Origin: a virus
Lineage: Duplodnaviria > Heunggongvirae > Uroviricota > Caudoviricetes
Virus record (IMG/VR): IMGVR_UViG_2740892423_000027
Length of the DNA: 44,568 nucleotides
Reading direction: 5' to 3' (one strand)
The notes below the pieces were generated by a model. The model was not told where the DNA came from and did no database searches. It was given only the letters and a program-made list of their open reading frames with translations. Shown one piece after another: positions 8,676 to 44,568 of this stretch. The translations under genes and the position numbers were made by a program. Each line of letters starts with the position of its first letter. Position 1 is the stretch's first letter.

Positions 8676-9536
8676 TTAAAGTAAGACCAGCGCGCAGCTG
8701 TCGGTGTTGTTCCAGGTAAGGAAGCCCGTAGCGCTGTCATAGCTGACAGTTTTAGAGTTCCCACTCTCGATGGAGATGACTTTCACCGGCAGGGTGATGT
8801 CTGCCTGAGCCACAGCGCCGATAGCGCCCTGCGTGGTCGCGGAGCCGCCCGGCGCGCTGGCAGGCGCATAGGTGAAGGTTGTCGTACTCGGTACGGTCAG
8901 CACAACGACGGTGCCGTTATAGGCAGCCGGATCTACGCCGCTGATCTTCACGTACTGGCCTGCAGTCAGACCATGTGCAGAGGCAGTGGTGGCGGTGGCC
9001 ACGCCATTCGAGTAGGTAACAGCGGTCGTGTCAATGTCAGCACCGGAAAAAGCCGCCGCGGCTGCGGTGGTCACCTGGTTATTGACGAAGTCCCACGCCA
9101 GCGGCGTTTTCACCGATGCGCCAGCGGTTCCCAGTGCGACCACCTGCGCTGAAGCTTTCAGCGGAACGCGCATGTTGGAGCCAAGGCGATAGAATGAAAC
9201 GCTCATGCCGGACGCATACAGCGGAACTGGTGATTGCGGAGTGGTAAGCCCGTTGTGGGCCTGGTTGAAGACGGTGAAGCCTTCGAGCTCAGCCAGTGAT
9301 ACAGCGCGACGAATAGTCGACCCGCGAGGGCTGGAATTCACGCCGGACAGCAACTCGGCAACCGGCAGGCCACCCCACAGCGGTTTGGTTTCGGTGGCGG
9401 CGACAGTGCCGGAAGCCAGGTTAAAGCGGTTTGCCGGATCATCCAGAGCAACACCCTGAATGAAGCCATCAGACTGCACACCGAAGGAACCAGCGGCATT
9501 CGTGGTCGCCATCGGGTTAAGAGATAAATTAGCCAT
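8676..9536 (-). CDS. Capsid accessory/decoration-like protein
   Basis: 286-aa Ala/Thr/Gly-rich ORF between scaffold-like gene and major capsid gene. Confidence 0.4.
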   Translation of the reverse strand: MANLSLNPMATTNAAGSFGVQSDGFIQGVALDDPANRFNLASGTVAATETKPLWGGLPVAELLSGVNSSPRGSTIRRAVSLAELEGFTVFNQAHNGLTTPQSPVPLYASGMSVSFYRLGSNMRVPLKASAQVVALGTAGASVKTPLAWDFVNNQVTTAAAAAFSGADIDTTAVTYSNGVATATTASAHGLTAGQYVKISGVDPAAYNGTVVVLTVPSTTTFTYAPASAPGGSATTQGAIGAVAQADITLPVKVISIESGNSKTVSYDSATGFLTWNNTDSCALVLL

Positions 9537-9551: not shown

Positions 9552-11168
<1,617 letters not shown>

Positions 11169-33851: not shown

Positions 33852-33900
33852 AATAGCGGGTAAAATATTTCTCACATCTAAAAAACACCATTCCAATCAA

Positions 33901-33934
33901 TCCCCTGCTGCTTCAAGTAGATGTCTGCAGGGGA
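33901..33934. repeat. Inverted repeat TCCCCTGC..GCAGGGGA in xis-int intergenic region
   Basis: 8-bp perfect arms with 18-nt loop; no T-run following. Confidence 0.5.
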
Positions 33935-35427: not shown

Positions 35428-36309
35428 ATGCAGCATTCAACAGAGAATGAAACTATATTCTTAGGAAATCTATGGATTGACAAAAAAATACCACCATTAG
35501 AATATTGTTCATTTGAACGCGCTTCAAGATTATTAGAATGCGAGATTGATGATTTATTACACCTATACGAAATAGGCGCTTTTAATATCGCATTCAAGGC
35601 GGATGGACTTGCAGTTAGATTTAATGTTAATTTCCTCAATAAAAATCAGAAAATGGAAATTGACTTAATTCATCCCGTATTAACTAATCAATCACTAGAG
35701 ATGGAGTTTTCAACAATATGGTATGACCTTAAAGATGATTCCTTTGAACATTTTGAAAATGGGCTTCAAATTATAGGATTTGCCTGTGGTATTTGGTACG
35801 CCGATGATATGATAAGTGACATAAAAAATGGATTAGCTATAGATCCAGATTATGAATTCAGGCTTAAACCGGTAAAAATACGAGATAATGTTTTGATGGC
35901 AACGGCCTCATATGAAGGAAATAAGGTCATTGATATTCCATTTGAAGATCTTCTTATCATGCGAAGAGATTTAGAGTTAATATGGAAATCAGTAAAAACT
36001 GGAATTCCTATGCCAAGTTTACTTACGAAAAGAATTTCATCTGAACCTAAAATCCCCAAGCGATTAAATAACACTGCTGAGCATCATGCAAAAAATAGGG
36101 AGGGGTTATTAAATGCAGCCATATATATTTTAGCAAAATACCCAAGCGAATGTCGTGGTGAAAGAAAAGAGATAAGTCCTGAAAAGTGGACTAACGCCAT
36201 AATTAAACATTTAGGAGAGCTACCTCCAATATTTATCACTAATGAACAAGAAATCTTAAGAAAATTACGATTAGCGGTTAATCATGCGGGGTTAAAACAA
36301 AAGGGGTAG
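35428..36309 (+). CDS. Hypothetical AT-rich cargo protein (293 aa) between int and alpA
   Basis: Starts 31 nt after int stop, AGAGG upstream; strongly AT-rich; no recognisable motif. Confidence 0.55.
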   Translation: MQHSTENETIFLGNLWIDKKIPPLEYCSFERASRLLECEIDDLLHLYEIGAFNIAFKADGLAVRFNVNFLNKNQKMEIDLIHPVLTNQSLEMEFSTIWYDLKDDSFEHFENGLQIIGFACGIWYADDMISDIKNGLAIDPDYEFRLKPVKIRDNVLMATASYEGNKVIDIPFEDLLIMRRDLELIWKSVKTGIPMPSLLTKRISSEPKIPKRLNNTAEHHAKNREGLLNAAIYILAKYPSECRGERKEISPEKWTNAIIKHLGELPPIFITNEQEILRKLRLAVNHAGLKQKG

Positions 36310-37822: not shown

Positions 37823-38202
37823 ACCAGCCGCAGGTTTCCATTTTCCCGGCAGAAATGACCACCGCGCTTTACCGGCGGGCTATTGCTTCAGCATGGCGGC
37901 AGAAAATGCTGAACGAAACTGGCAGTGATCAGTATGGTCCGCACAGCCTGACGGTGGAGCGTATTGAAATGGCCATTGCGCTGCATATCGAGTGCGTACT
38001 GATTAACGAGTACGGCGAAGTGCAGGGCGCCGCTGCCGCGCTGGCACTGCTGACTGACATGCTGGAGCCGTCACTGCTGACCGCGCCGCCGGTACTGACC
38101 GCGCGCGGCTGTGAAGTGATGGCGGAGATGTACCGCACGCTTCCGGCGGCCTTTGATGACTTCTGCAGTACCGGTGTGACGTTGTATGAGGGGGAAGTAT
38201 GA
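37819..38202 (+). CDS. Hypothetical protein upstream of primase (epsilon position)
   Basis: 127-aa ORF; ATGA overlap with both neighbours. Confidence 0.45.
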   Translation: MNQPQVSIFPAEMTTALYRRAIASAWRQKMLNETGSDQYGPHSLTVERIEMAIALHIECVLINEYGEVQGAAAALALLTDMLEPSLLTAPPVLTARGCEVMAEMYRTLPAAFDDFCSTGVTLYEGEV

Positions 38203-40871
38203 CAATACAGACGGTTACGCAGATTTCAGCCGCCGCACGGGGGAAATGGCCCGTTATTCTGCAGATGCTGCGTATTGATGTACCTGAAAACGGCAGGCAC
38301 GGTCCCTGCCCGAAATGTGGGGGCAAGGATCGTTTTCGCCTTGATGACCTTGACGGGCGCGGGACGTGGATCTGCAGCCAGTGTGGCAATGGTGACGGTC
38401 TGGATCTGGTTAAGCTCGTAACCGGTTACAGCGTCAGAAAGGCTGCGCAGGAGGTGGCGCAGGTGCTTAATGTGCCGGATGTGCAGGAACTGCCTGTTAA
38501 GCCTGCCAGACAAAAAGCCCCTAAACGCGACATGGGTCTTACCGTGGCGGCGCTGATGAAAGAGAGCCACACGGGAGAAAGCGCCTATCTGACAGGAAAA
38601 GGGTTCGCCGGATACCCGGCCTCTCTGACCGGAAGCGTGCAGCATATCAGCGGTAAGGATTTTCCTGCCGGTTCCCTGCTGTTACCACTCACGACCAACA
38701 CCGGAGCCGTGACCGGTGCACAGCTTATCGCCCCGACGGGTGAAAAAAGCATACTGCCCGGCAGCACGATGAAAGGCGCGTTTGTGTCGCTCAGCCCGTT
38801 ACCGTCTGAACCACCGGTACAGGTGGTGATTACCGAAGGTTACGCTACGGCGCTGACGGTAAGCCAGCTCACTGCCGGATGCGTAGTGGCTGCCATATCT
38901 GCGGGCAACCTGCCCAATGTGGCGCAGTCGCTGCGGGCACGCTGGCCTGAGGTAAAAATTATCATCGCCGGTGATAACGATTTTCAGGACGGGGGTGAGA
39001 ATCCCGGCAGAGCCTTTGCTGAACGGGCGGCAAAAGCTGTTGGCGGCTGGATGACGCTGCCACCAGGAGAGATTAAGGCTGACTGGAATGACTTTCATCG
39101 GGAGCACGGTATTACCCGTGCCCGTGAAGCCTTTCGCAACGGTCTGGTACTGTGCGGGGAAGGCCGCACGCAACTGCCGCACGGGTTCCGTCTTACCCAG
39201 GAATATCTCTGGTATGAAAAGCAGGTACAGCGCAACGGTGAGACGGAGATCCAGAACGTCAAAATATGCAGCCCGCTGCGCGTGACGGCAATCACCTGCG
39301 ATGCCGATGGCGGTAACTTCGGACGACTGCTGGAATGGGAAGATACGTGGGGTGAGTGTCGCCGCTGGGCGATGCCGATGGAAATGCTGAGCGGCAGTGG
39401 TGAGGAACTGCGCCGGGTACTGCTGGTTAACGGGCTGTCTTATATCAGCACCACCGGTGAGGCACGCGCACGCCTGATGGAATATATCTCACTGTGTAAA
39501 CCGGAACGCCGCGTGACCTGCGTCAGTCGTACTGGCTGGCATGGTCAGGTTTACGTCCTGCAGGATGAGGTCAGCGGTGAAGGTGCAGAGGGTGTCATTC
39601 TCCAGACCACTTCCGTGCAGGGGCGTGATTTCCGCGTGTCGGGCACAACAGAGGAATGGCGGGAGCATGTATCCCGCTACTGTACCGGCAACTCCCGCGT
39701 GGCATTTGCTGTCAGCCTGGCCTTTGCTGCACCACTGTTACGGCTGGTTGGTATGGACGGCGGCGGCTACCACCTCAAAGGGGAATCGACAGACGGTAAG
39801 ACCACCACCATGAAAGCGGCAACCTCCGTCTGCGGCGGGCCTGACTACTGGCAGACATGGCGGGCCACCGGCAACGCGCTGGAGGGATGCGCCAGCCGCC
39901 GCAACGATGCCGCCATGATGCTTGATGAGATCCGGGAAGTTGACGGACGCGAGGCAGGCAATATCGCCTACATGCTGGCAAACGGTCAGGGCAAGGGCCG
40001 TGCCGGTACGGACGGTGAGCTGCGTACCCGTAAGCAGTGGCGCCTGTTGTTCTTTTCAACTGGCGAGTTGTCTCTGACCGAACATGCGGCAAAGGCCGGT
40101 GAGCGTACTTTTGCCGGGATGGAAGTCAGGATGATCCAGATCCCCAGCGATTCCGGGAAGTTTGGCGTTTTTGAGGAGCTGCACGGCTTCGACAGCGGCA
40201 AGGCTCTGGCAGAGCATCTTGAATGGGCCACGTCCTGCTACTACGGTTCGCCGTTCCGGGAGTGGCTGAAAGCACTGACCGCTGATCTTAACGGACTAAC
40301 GGCACAGGCAAAATCGCTGATGAAGGAATATGCTGCCGCCCTGACTCCTAAAGATGCAGGCAATCAGGTGGGCCGGGCTGTGAACCGCTTTGCACTGGTG
40401 GCGATGGCAGGTGAACTGGCAACCCGTCTGGGTATCACCGGCTGGCCTGAGGGTGAAGCACTGCGGGCAACCCGCGTCTGCCTGAACGCATGGCTGAAAG
40501 ATCGCGGGCACACCGCCAATCAGGAAGATATCGCCGCACTGGAGCAGGTTCGCAGTTTCTTTACCGCGAATCAGTACAGCCGCTTTGCAGACTGGTATGA
40601 CGAGCGCAACCGCCCCGGCAATATGGTGGGCTGGCGCAGGGTGGAGAAAGGCAGTACCGCGCAGGGCACGGAAGCTATCACTACGTTCTATGTCATGCCG
40701 TCCGGCTGGAAAGAAATCTGCAGGGGATTTGACCCGCGCAAGGTGGCGCGTCTGTGCGTAGATCGTGGATACCTGCTGCCCTCCACTGATGGCAAACTCC
40801 AGACAACCATTCGCCCGCCAGAGATGAATCCCCGCAGGCTCTATGTCTTCAACAGCGAGGTGCCGGGTTAA
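38199..40871 (+). CDS. Primase-helicase, P4 alpha type (zinc-binding N-term, TOPRIM primase, D5-like helicase)
   Basis: 890 aa; N-terminal CPKCGG...CSQCGNGDG zinc ribbon; TOPRIM-like ITEGYATAL...IIAGDND; C-terminal P-loop region HLKGESTDGKTT. Confidence 0.85.
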   Translation: MTIQTVTQISAAARGKWPVILQMLRIDVPENGRHGPCPKCGGKDRFRLDDLDGRGTWICSQCGNGDGLDLVKLVTGYSVRKAAQEVAQVLNVPDVQELPVKPARQKAPKRDMGLTVAALMKESHTGESAYLTGKGFAGYPASLTGSVQHISGKDFPAGSLLLPLTTNTGAVTGAQLIAPTGEKSILPGSTMKGAFVSLSPLPSEPPVQVVITEGYATALTVSQLTAGCVVAAISAGNLPNVAQSLRARWPEVKIIIAGDNDFQDGGENPGRAFAERAAKAVGGWMTLPPGEIKADWNDFHREHGITRAREAFRNGLVLCGEGRTQLPHGFRLTQEYLWYEKQVQRNGETEIQNVKICSPLRVTAITCDADGGNFGRLLEWEDTWGECRRWAMPMEMLSGSGEELRRVLLVNGLSYISTTGEARARLMEYISLCKPERRVTCVSRTGWHGQVYVLQDEVSGEGAEGVILQTTSVQGRDFRVSGTTEEWREHVSRYCTGNSRVAFAVSLAFAAPLLRLVGMDGGGYHLKGESTDGKTTTMKAATSVCGGPDYWQTWRATGNALEGCASRRNDAAMMLDEIREVDGREAGNIAYMLANGQGKGRAGTDGELRTRKQWRLLFFSTGELSLTEHAAKAGERTFAGMEVRMIQIPSDSGKFGVFEELHGFDSGKALAEHLEWATSCYYGSPFREWLKALTADLNGLTAQAKSLMKEYAAALTPKDAGNQVGRAVNRFALVAMAGELATRLGITGWPEGEALRATRVCLNAWLKDRGHTANQEDIAALEQVRSFFTANQYSRFADWYDERNRPGNMVGWRRVEKGSTAQGTEAITTFYVMPSGWKEICRGFDPRKVARLCVDRGYLLPSTDGKLQTTIRPPEMNPRRLYVFNSEVPG

Positions 40872-40905
40872 GGCTTTGCGTGAGTCTTATTTATTAAGGG
40901 TAACA

Positions 40906-41094
40906 GGTGAAACAGGTGGAACAACCGTATTTTACAGGGCTGAACCTGTTCCACCTTCTGAAATAGTGAGGTGGAACAGATGTAACGCCAGCCAATCCGC
41001 TGTTCCACCTTGTTACCCGCGATGTTCCACCGGTGCAGTGTATATAAATGCCTTATAAAACAAAGCAGTAACACATGTTTCACCTGTTCCACCG
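40906..41094. repeat. Iteron cluster: at least 8 copies of TGTTCCACC / TGTTTCACC in both orientations (P4 ori/crr-like alpha-binding sites)
   Basis: GGTGAAACA 40906, GGTGGAACA 40915 and 40970, TGTTCCACC 40947, 41001, 41024, 41086, TGTTTCACC 41078; P4 type I iteron is TGTTCACC. Confidence 0.6.
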
Positions 41095-41271
41095 CATCAG
41101 GGACATAAAGCAGACTGAAACAGAGGGTATTTTTATCTGGCTGGCTTTCATAGCCACGTCTGAATAACCGCAAGCGCCCGTTGTGCCAGCCACCACACAC
41201 TGAGCACCGATAGTGTGCTTGTGTCAGCCACGACACAATTGACGTAACGAACCAACCCGACAGGAGAAGTC

Positions 41272-42888: not shown

Positions 42889-43104
42889 ACACCTTTTCCC
42901 TGGCTGGCCTGAGAGCGCATGAGTGCATGTCTATGGCGCATGAAAACGCATGAGCCTTATGCACCATTTTTGACGAGAAAGCCCTTGTGTGGTGGCTTCT
43001 GAGACGATTTATGAGGTGCATGAAAACCAGTCTGTTAAGCGAAGCGGGCAGGCGTGCGGGGCTGCCCGCGCAGAAGGAGAAAGAGGTGTATTCAAAGTAT
43101 TTTT

Positions 43105-44568
43105 CTACCCATGACATTTTTTGAATTTTTTTCCTGATCCACAATAGCAAGGCTCATTTCTTCCCATTTTTTTTTCATTATTAACTATAGGGAATGTAGA
43201 CATATATGATGTCGGCTTAGGCAAGATGTCTGTAAGAACGCTATACTCCTTCATGGATTTTTTCGCTAATAAGCGCTCATCCTTTGTAAGTGGCTCATCA
43301 AACTTACAATAAACAACATCTTCAGAACGGCCCTCAGAATCTTTGCTTTCCGTTGCAATAATTATCAACTTCTTAATTTGACTGTATTTATACTTCGCCA
43401 CTAGTGCATACATTTGCACACAAGAAAAACGCTCCAATCTATATTTTTCATATGATAACCCTTCATCACGCGGAAAGAACAAAAAAATATAATATTTGCC
43501 TTTTTCGTCAATCGACTCAACAATCCTAGAACTTCTTCTATTAGTAGGAACCTGTTTGAACTTTTCTATAAATGCCTTAGAAAGATGATATCTTGACACT
43601 CTGCTTTCTGCTGCCAGTTGTCTAACTGTTTCCTCATGACTATGAAAGTCATTTTCTATACCCAAACCTACAGTTGCAGTAAGAATTGATTCCGAAAGTC
43701 TCTGTATCATTTCATCCCAAAACACACTTCCTTTTTTCATTGCCTTGTAATAATCATACTGAGGAGATTTTTTTAACACTTCCCACTCATTTTCTGCTAT
43801 TTGCACAAATGTATTTTCAGGTACCAATTTCTCATCTACAATCACTCCATGCCCGCTCAAATATGCAGCCAAAGTATCATCTTCTCCTGGACTTAATCTC
43901 AGAAGGCCAGAACGGACAACACGTTCCTTCTCTTTCAAGTAACTAACAAAGTCAGTAATTGTATCTAACTCCGACAATAAGAGATTTAATGACAATTCAT
44001 CTAACACATGAACAAATGTTTTATTTGGATAAATATCTCCAATGGAAAAAGGTTGCTCCATACTTTCCTTTATTCCAAATGAGAAAACATTCATGAGAGT
44101 ACCAGAACTCCCTTCAGCTATACGTGAAAAGAAATTAGATGCAGGAACCGAACTATTATTGGTTACAGCGATAAGGAAAAACCTCATATCTCTATTTATT
44201 TTAACTGGAAAGGGAACTTTGCATTTTTTATCTAAGAACAATCGTCCATGATGATCTTTTAAAAACTTCTCTGCCCCATGTAACTGAACAGCCGATTCAG
44301 TTATGGATTTTTTAAACCATCTTTTCCATGCTACAGAAACTTCAATCTCTTCGTTAAAGTTAATATCCTTATCTGAAAATAAAATCACATTATTTTCAAA
44401 AACAACTAATAAATCACACACCTCCTTCCCCGATTTGTTTTTAGAAAGCCCTTCATCACTATACACATTAGGATATGACCATAAACCAATAAACGCACTA
44501 TTAGCCAGTTCTATTAATCTTTTTTCAGTTTGATTAACTCCCTGCCCTTTGTTAATCACTTTTAACAT
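43105..44568 (-). CDS. AT-rich cargo protein with C-terminal SEC-C zinc-binding motif (487 aa; defence candidate); start coincides with last base of window so N-terminus may be longer
   Basis: C-terminus ends [14 protein letters not shown] (SEC-C motif); strongly AT-rich, antisense to satellite late operon; N-terminal region has a D..E..DK-like pattern ([17 protein letters not shown]) that could be nuclease-like but is unverified. Confidence 0.6.

Follow-up and report, generated by a model that had tools for sequence, protein, structure and literature searches.

A probable iteron-type replication origin downstream of a Rep-type replicase gene in a P4-like satellite of Escherichia coli

Genomic context

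The window analyzed here, meaning the whole stretch of 44,568 bp, is Escherichia coli chromosome and shares 100% identity with strain PM4. An element is integrated at a tRNA-Arg gene (33855-33926), with the attL core in the tRNA 3' end, and a 16-bp direct repeat of that 3' end, TTCGATTCCTGCAGGG, lies ~510 bp beyond the window end (16381-16396 of L001, which holds the complete element). On the basis of the att repeats, the element is ~11.2 kb in size (P4 is 11.6 kb). Its genes run in the order integrase, a 293-aa ORF (35428-36309, + strand) with no Pfam or PHROG match, AlpA, an Icd-like gene, small ORFs, a DUF5375 gene (P4 orf106-like), the gene for an 890-aa replicase (38199-40871, + strand), the repeats that are the subject of this study, Sid-like, Psu and Ogr/Delta-like genes, a cos-like site and, on the opposite strand, a YecA-family gene. 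Pfam matches in the element include integrase, AlpA, Psu (twice, the first being the Sid-like protein) and Ogr_Delta. Neither PF03288, the alpha marker, nor Phage_ASH (epsilon) was matched among the element ORFs scanned with Pfam. The 247-aa Sid-like protein is only remotely similar to P4 Sid (24% identity, E 1e-12).

In the published criteria for P4-like satellites, integrase, AlpA, Sid, Psu and Delta homologues lie together in an element of ~10 kb, alpha is detected by PF03288 and the canonical gene order is int-psu-delta-sid-alpA-epsilon-alpha (PMC8628076). In the present element of ~11.2 kb, these five homologues occur together, in the order int-alpA-...-replicase-ori-sid-psu-delta. We conclude from this gene content that the element is a P4-like satellite, although its order differs from that of P4. 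A single inversion converting the window gene order into that of P4, with one cluster split into ori and crr, was considered and rejected because the att-int end would also have to be moved.

Upstream of the sid-like gene are two TGT-N12-ACA dyads, TGTGCCAGCCACCACACA (41182-41199) and TGTGTCAGCCACGACACA (41220-41237), set 38 bp apart; the sid-like ATG (41272) follows the first of them by 90 bp. The Psid promoter of P4 has its dyads at 9493 and 9531 and the sid ATG at 9583, a geometry identical to that of the window, and the double dyad at 41182-41237 is probably a Delta/Ogr-activated late promoter. The cos-like site (42998-43098) lies between the delta-like and YecA-family genes, in the place equivalent to that in P4, past the late operon and before the cargo hotspot. 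Its local alignment with the P4 cos junction, which includes AAGCGGGCAGGCG, scores 53, compared to a mean of 21.9 and a maximum of 47 for shuffled sequences. The gene for the 487-aa YecA-family protein (43105-44568, - strand) is between the cos-like site and attR, a position occupied in P4 by a variable cargo or defence hotspot (gop-beta-cII).

Organization of the repeat cluster

The 400-bp intergenic region between the replicase stop (40871) and the ATG of the Sid-like ORF (41272) is unannotated and was found in 331 of 5,426 complete E. coli genomes (6%). A motif scan of both strands of the 44,568-bp window detected TGTTYCACC exactly eight times, and every copy lies within 40906-41093, with starts at 40906(-), 40915(-), 40947(+), 40970(-), 41001(+), 41023(+), 41076(+) and 41085(+). 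Dinucleotide-preserving shuffles of the window (n=100) contained on average 0.77 matches and at most 3, and 0 of 100 reached eight. With one mismatch allowed, only scattered singletons were found elsewhere in the window.

The preliminary description of this locus had reported at least eight copies in both orientations over ~190 bp, placed between an alpha gene and a sid-like gene, and the motif scan and shuffles bear out the cluster, its span and its position. In one detail the description differs, as the repeats are 9-mers, six reading TGTTCCACC and two TGTTTCACC, and the P4 octamer TGTTCACC is absent from the cluster. No exact copy of that octamer is present anywhere in 40872-41271, and its three scattered copies in the whole window are at chance level (1.3 expected).

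Alignment with relatives revealed four further, degenerate units at conserved slots, AGGGTAACA (40897-40905), GATGTAACG (40979-40987), TGTTACCCG (41011-41019) and AGTAACACA (41067-41075). With eight exact and four degenerate units, the array extends from 40897 to 41093; its 12 slots of nine bp each, some in one orientation and some in the other, surround an A+T-rich tract. The left tandem array (40897-40923, - strand) begins 26 bp past the replicase stop codon and consists of three head-to-tail units at 9-bp pitch, reading AGGGTAACA GGTGAAACA GGTGGAACA on the + strand; two to three tandem units occupy these slots in all Enterobacterales relatives. It is followed by a single inverted TGTTCCACC unit (slot 4, 40947-40955, + strand) and by GGTGGAACA with its degenerate neighbor GATGTAACG (slots 5-6, 40970-40987, - strand), the latter slot reading GGTGGAACG in L003 and L004. 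Next come TGTTCCACC, degenerate TGTTACCCG and TGTTCCACC again (slots 7-9, 41001-41031, + strand), forming the left flank of the A+T-rich tract GTATATAAATGCCTTATAAAACAAAGC (41040-41066, about 26% G+C). The right tandem array (slots 11-13, 41067-41093, + strand), inverted relative to the left one, is made up of degenerate AGTAACACA, TGTTTCACC and TGTTCCACC. The order from left to right is thus three G-strand tandem units, one inverted unit, two G-strand units, three T-strand units, the A+T-rich tract and three T-strand tandem units, and the outer arrays are part of a 39-nt imperfect inverted repeat (40902-40940 / 41050-41088). A composition scan placed the lowest G+C content, 27.5%, at 41040-41079. 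The A+T-rich block aligned in all relatives, which also keep a TTATAAWWCAA-like core inside the tract. At the left edge of the tract, a G-oriented unit is present in Xenorhabdus and Proteus and is degenerate in the window (GGTGCAGTG).

Some minor elements adjoin the array. A degenerate G-strand unit, ACTGAAACA, is located at 41115-41123, 22 bp past the last array, and the position is kept in close relatives as GACTGAAACAGA or GGCTGAAACAGA; it may represent a thirteenth slot. Two non-iteron boxes are also kept in relatives, GAGTCTTAT just past the stop codon (40882-40890) and TTTTTATCTGGCTGGC (41130-41145) about 40 bp past the last unit, the latter with the consensus TTTTCTGGCnGGC among relatives. 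P4 carries TTTTCCTGGCTTGCC in the stretch from its ori iterons to Psid, at 9459-9473.

Searches for other signals were negative. Neither strict (TTATCCACA) nor relaxed (TTWTNCACA) DnaA boxes, nor IHF consensus or GATC sites, are found in 40872-41271, and no sigma-70 promoter or intrinsic terminator was detected within the cluster. Rfam returned no RNA element at E<=1, the two eukaryotic matches being at chance level and far under gathering scores. A second, crr-like cluster is absent from both the window and the complete element with one mismatch allowed, only isolated one-mismatch singletons being found. The ori/crr framing of the preliminary description does not fit this single cluster, an arrangement seen in PICI/SaPI replicons.

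Replicase domains and homology

The replicase is predicted to combine a Zn-ribbon and TOPRIM primase (aa 1-316), a DUF927 helicase (aa ~330-612) and a helical C-terminal domain (aa ~790-890, encoded by 40566-40868) that, in the predicted model, has a winged helix at its end. Pfam identified Zn_Ribbon_Prim, Toprim_3 and DUF927 (E 2e-90) in the window protein, compared to Zn_Ribbon_Prim, Toprim_3, D5_N, DUF5906 and Pox_D5 in P4 alpha; none of the last three was detected in the window replicase. BLASTP similarity to P4 alpha is confined to residues 5-316 (38% identity, E 1e-48), and a profile of the C-terminal part compared against the C-terminal 254 residues of alpha gave an hhalign probability of 0.7%. 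The DNA-binding domain of P4 alpha is the Pox_D5 (PF03288) winged helix of structure 1KA8 (PMC2777425). The gene had been taken for alpha in the preliminary description, an identification that applies to residues 1-316 only, since the helicase is of the DUF927 type and Pox_D5 is missing. Judged by sequence, the replicase is not an alpha orthologue in its origin-binding part.

Residues 415-643 match SaPIbov1 Rep (PDB 8TCH) and SCCmec Cch (PDB 5DGK) by sequence. Fold searches with predicted models matched Rep, Cch and TcpK, and the P4 alpha origin-binding domain was not among the fold matches listed. By sequence and predicted fold together, the homology to SaPIbov1 Rep and Cch extends over both the helicase and the C-terminal domain. 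These sequence and model comparisons indicate that the protein is a Rep-type helicase with a predicted C-terminal winged-helix iteron-binding domain, and it is the proposed initiator for the adjacent array. Among deposited phage records no close full-length relative was found, the best match having 37% identity over 67% of the query.

Related loci and lineage-specific units

A scan of one genome per species yielded 39 related loci at 36-100% identity. All 39 were fetched, and 28 were inspected downstream of the gene; 22 of these 28 have a repeat cluster just past the replicase stop. Equivalent repeats are thus present in most of the related loci inspected; their absence from related satellites would have spoken against the origin proposal of the preliminary description. 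Slot order and orientation are kept across Enterobacterales members, whereas the unit is lineage-specific. Within each locus one unit fills all slots, and all slots change together. At least nine different units occur across the relatives; the unit types include GGTGGAACA, GGTGTAACA, CTGGTAACA, GGGTAACA, TGGGGACA and, in a Pseudomonas phage record, GGGGAACAG. Unit GGTGGAACA is found in E. coli, Shigella, Citrobacter, Enterobacter and one Pantoea stewartii copy, GGTGTAACA in Pantoea, Yersinia, Xenorhabdus BG5 and Proteus terrae, CTGGTAACA in Xenorhabdus, Morganella and the second Pantoea leporis copy, TGGGTAACA in Proteus vulgaris and a distant gammaproteobacterium, TGGGGACA in Oxalobacter, and GGTGTTACA, GGGGAACC, GGCGTTACAG and GGGACAAGC in metagenome-assembled genomes. 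The concerted change of repeats could in part reflect sequence homogenization rather than selection by one protein. The suggestion of a co-evolved protein and iteron specificity in the preliminary description is retained, given that repeat and protein co-vary among relatives, but not as an alpha/iteron pair that diverged from P4.

Of 14 more distant relatives, 8 have the most repeat-rich 300-bp segment of their entire 6-8 kb locus directly 3' of the gene. No cluster was found anywhere in the fetched 6-8 kb of five loci (L026, L027, L030, L031 and L036), which may be decayed elements or have another origin arrangement, and L038 has only a weak cluster about 1.2 kb downstream of the gene. A common, different downstream sequence is conserved in L030, L031 and L036. 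In Pseudomonas phage phiAH14b (L045 3795-4030; KU708005 ~9294-9529), in which the primase and the DUF927 helicase are encoded by separate genes, an unannotated GGGGAACAG array is located directly past the DUF927-type "RNA helicase" gene. It consists of three tandem units, inverted singles, an A+T-rich stretch and three tandem inverted units, and is probably the origin of that phage. No convincing cluster was seen in vB_Pae_U10.

Nine close relatives, all with the E. coli unit, were compared for variation within the intergenic region. Slot columns vary at 7 of 72 positions (10%) and non-slot columns at 47 of 187 (25%; Fisher p=0.006), and the slot changes are mostly the tolerated C/T at position 5. 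This difference indicates purifying selection on the iteron slots. Chance or parasitic repeats of the MITE/REP type, or a cluster of host DnaA boxes, would give the region no element-specific role, and we consider either scarcely credible. The unit TGTTCCACC does agree with the relaxed DnaA box TTWTNCACA at 7 of 9 positions, but the lack of boxes in 40872-41271 and the change of the unit to CTGGTAACA, GGGTAACA and others within Enterobacterales, where DnaA specificity is conserved, exclude a DnaA-box cluster. Parasitic repeats are difficult to reconcile with the selection on the slots and with the confinement of the cluster to its replicase-adjacent position in the 331 E. coli genomes, with a median of one place per genome.

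The gene 3' of the cluster varies among relatives (a sid-like gene, a delta-like zinc finger or unrelated genes), which indicates that the repeats belong with the replicase gene. This also bears on whether the repeats are operators, bound by AlpA, Delta or a similar protein, for the late sid-psu-delta operon or for replicase read-through. Such a role would suit the location of the cluster, which separates two transcription units and precedes a late promoter. However, the Delta/Ogr-type TGT-N12-ACA dyads are separate from it (41182-41237), it follows the replicase even where the downstream gene is different or absent, promoter, terminator and Rfam searches gave nothing, and the unit co-varies with the replicase C-terminus. 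Because the cluster keeps its place behind the replicase when the downstream gene changes, and because the Delta-type dyads are distinct from it, an operator function is highly improbable.

Proposed function as a replication origin

Our proposal, which we hold to be very probable, is that vegetative replication of the ~11.2-kb P4-like satellite at tRNA-Arg starts from the cluster, which would work in the manner of SaPI and PICI origins. The proposal draws on the repeats and their architecture, their conservation, their concerted change with the replicase lineage, the selection on the slots and the homology of the initiator helicase, and it strengthens the earlier candidacy of the region as a satellite origin. 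In the mechanism we envisage, a single polypeptide would supply a DnaG-type Zn-ribbon/TOPRIM primase, a hexameric helicase of the DUF927 (Rep/Cch) type and a C-terminal winged helix. The winged helix would bind the 9-bp iterons, and rings assembled on the arrays either side of the A+T-rich tract (41040-41066), the proposed initial melting site, would melt it. The replicase would then load itself as the replicative helicase, with its own primase domain priming and a host polymerase carrying out extension. Binding, melting, self-loading and priming are here inferred for the replicase, and it is speculation that a double hexamer, with its 12 winged helices, would match the 12 slots.

This kind of origin is already known as the SaPI/PICI-type iteron origin. 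The SaPI origin is immediately 3' of rep, with 6-12 iterons on both sides of an A+T-rich center; the C-terminal winged helix of Rep binds the iterons without ATP, the origin melts, and self-loading of Rep as the replicative helicase follows, probably in the form of two hexamers (PMC9371898). The window replicon resembles those of the SaPIs (SaPIbov1 Rep, PDB 8TCH; SaPI1 and SaPI5 Reps) in the position of the origin immediately downstream of the initiator gene and in its short iterons in opposite orientations flanking an A+T-rich center, with slots 1-9 on the left and slots 11-13 on the right. By sequence and predicted fold, the helicase and C-terminal domain of the window replicase are homologous to SaPIbov1 Rep, and the fusion of primase and Rep is shared with SaPI5 PriRep. 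SaPI iteron sequences are specific to the Rep lineage, forming cognate pairs, and the sequences of the relatives point to the same pattern here. The two differ in that SaPI units are penta- or hexanucleotides, while those of the window are 9 bp at an exact 9-bp tandem pitch, and in that the window units adjoining the A+T-rich tract have the same orientation, unlike the typical description for SaPIs. The window host is Gram-negative, the element is P4-like (sid/psu/delta) rather than a SaPI, and the fused primase has the P4-alpha-type Zn-ribbon/TOPRIM. SCCmec Cch (PDB 5DGK) also has a homologous DUF927 helicase core and C-terminal domain, in a different type of element and host.

Gram-negative PICIs have the same layout, and EcCICFT073's pri-rep-ori segment drove plasmid replication (PMC6092414). 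EcCICFT073 and the window element share the order int - alpA - ... - replicase - ori - late or interference genes and, in both, the origin directly follows the replicase gene and has an A+T-rich region between two sets of iterons. Pri-Rep of EcCICFT073, however, is a D5_N/DUF5906/Pox_D5 protein (P4-alpha-type helicase and origin-binding domain) without TOPRIM, and it has no significant similarity to the window replicase. Its iteron is GGTAGACAG, and its late genes encode a lambda-type capsid rather than sid/psu/delta.

Comparison with P4 shows a mixture of shared and distinct features. Both are P2-type satellites with Sid, Psu and Delta homologues, their primase domains are homologous (38% identity), and the iterons of both are of the G-rich...AACA form and lie in the two orientations about A+T-rich DNA. 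In the window element, the cluster lies ~90 bp upstream of a double TGT-N12-ACA late promoter that has the geometry of Psid. P4 (NC_001609) differs in requiring two separated sites, ori and crr, where the window element has one cluster, in its octamer iteron at 10-11-bp pitch, in the SF3 D5-type helicase and Pox_D5 winged helix of alpha, neither of which is found in the window replicase, and in gene order, the window replicase reading directly into sid. Given this P4-like neighborhood, the single cluster combines the location of crr (3' of the replicase) with that of ori (upstream of Psid).

Binding of type I iterons by alpha is indicated by the P4 GenBank annotation and by a title cited in PMC8628076. 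In line with the preliminary description, the cluster could be read as an origin or crr of the P4 type, recognized by an alpha orthologue through its origin-binding domain, the specificity of which has drifted by one base from TGTTCACC. The comparison with P4 ori/crr stands in part, as the unit is the P4 octamer with one inserted base; in addition, the N-terminal primase is homologous to alpha, and the cluster shares with crr its place 3' of the replicase and, as ori does, precedes a Psid-type double dyad, at a distance of ~90 bp. Against this, the exact octamer is missing, the pitch is 9 bp and not the 10-11 bp of P4, and there is a single cluster rather than a pair. Homology to alpha ends at residue 316, with no Pox_D5, D5_N or DUF5906 beyond it and an hhalign probability of 0.7%, and the fold matches listed are Rep, Cch and TcpK and include no P4 alpha origin-binding domain. 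Moreover, EcCICFT073, a genuine Pox_D5-type replicon, uses GGTAGACAG. Because only the primase is homologous, the binding domains are unrelated and the Pox_D5 protein of EcCICFT073 uses a different iteron, the one-base difference is not alpha/iteron drift, and the near-identity of the unit to the P4 iteron does not stem from a shared binding domain. The P4-type reading is already largely refuted and is very unlikely.

Another possibility is that the replicase binds the cluster as a copy-number, incompatibility or handcuffing site, a crr-like accessory, with initiation elsewhere. Iteron arrays commonly serve control as well as initiation, and P4 needs its non-origin crr. Two strains carry two replicon copies with different units, Pantoea stewartii ATCC 8199 (L004 GGTGGAACA vs L024 GGTGTAACA) and Pantoea leporis R (L010 GGTGTAACA vs L025 CTGGTAACA), as incompatibility avoidance predicts; these differences also fit selection for compatible, orthogonal replicons. 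However, the 11.2-kb element has no other repeat cluster or A+T-rich, iteron-flanked site, the embedded A+T-rich tract with flanking inverted arrays is the anatomy of an initiation site, and in the homologous SaPI system the origin itself is at this position (PMC9371898). A purely regulatory role is therefore unlikely, although less so than the other alternatives considered, and the SaPI/PICI-like origin remains the preferred explanation.

The proposal assigns a function to an unannotated 400-bp intergenic region of E. coli and many other Enterobacterales. It would mean that a common lineage of P4-like satellites replicates by a SaPI-Rep-type module fused to a P4-type primase, and that surveys for alpha based on Pox_D5 (PMC8628076) would score such elements as "lacking alpha" when the replication function has been replaced, not lost. 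The module sets are TOPRIM, D5 helicase and Pox_D5 with a two-part origin in P4, D5 helicase and Pox_D5 in EcCICFT073, and TOPRIM, DUF927 and a Rep-type winged helix in the window replicase family; from these differences, one origin design appears with at least three module combinations. Since a single-cluster lineage exists, the two-site ori/crr requirement of P4 need not be general among P4-like satellites. In the searchable literature we found no account of a SaPI-Rep-type module in a widespread P4-like satellite lineage, of the consequence for Pox_D5-based surveys, or of the lineage-specific unit series and candidate specificity residues. Neither TGTTCCACC nor GGTGGAACA was paired with "iteron" in any paper retrieved, a search for TGTTCACC returned unrelated primer matches only, and DUF927 with "satellite" returned one work only, where it appears as a generic "Primase" label.

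Candidate specificity residues

Closely related replicases with different units were compared to locate residues that may determine unit recognition. L011 (GGTGTAACA) and L013 (CTGGTAACA) encode proteins >96% identical with 31 residue differences, and L012 (GGTGTAACA) and L015 (TGGGTAACA) proteins >96% identical with 21. The C-terminal differences that coincide in both pairs are at 807, 846, 866/867 and 887. All six CTGGTAACA loci have Arg866, among them those of the divergent P. leporis and Morganella proteins, and Lys866 is found in 18 of 18 loci of the other Enterobacterales unit types. In predicted models, residue 846 is the first of the second helix, the predicted recognition helix, and residues 866-870 belong to the hairpin of the predicted wing, with 866 (codon at 40794-40796 of the window) just before the first strand. 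Thr846 and Pro867 are confined to the TGGGTAACA locus. Pro861 is the sole C-terminal residue found to separate the GGTGGAACA group from every GGTGTAACA-type locus, and it is also present in L025, which is of the CTGGTAACA type. These correlations between residue and unit are phylogenetically non-independent, may represent as few as two to three events, and are suggestive.

More tentatively, and with a probability we would put well short of even, the family may form a naturally occurring series of initiator/origin pairs with re-programmed specificity, in which one or two substitutions switch unit recognition under selection for orthogonality. Switches among GGTGTAACA, CTGGTAACA and GGGTAACA may then proceed via the wing or the start of the recognition helix, for example by K866R and changes at 846 and 867, and the driver may be an advantage of orthogonal replicons among satellites sharing one cell. 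The near-identical proteins with different iterons (L011/L013, L012/L015, and the E. coli vs Pantoea types) offer ready pairs in which the reading of DNA by Rep/Cch-type winged helices could be mapped, and from which orthogonal replicons could be built. A common G-rich...[A/T/G]ACA(G) theme is apparent in the iterons of P4, EcCICFT073 and the replicase family, whose origin-binding domains are unrelated, and could stem from a constraint common to all of them (a CTG-type priming site, for example) and not from chance.
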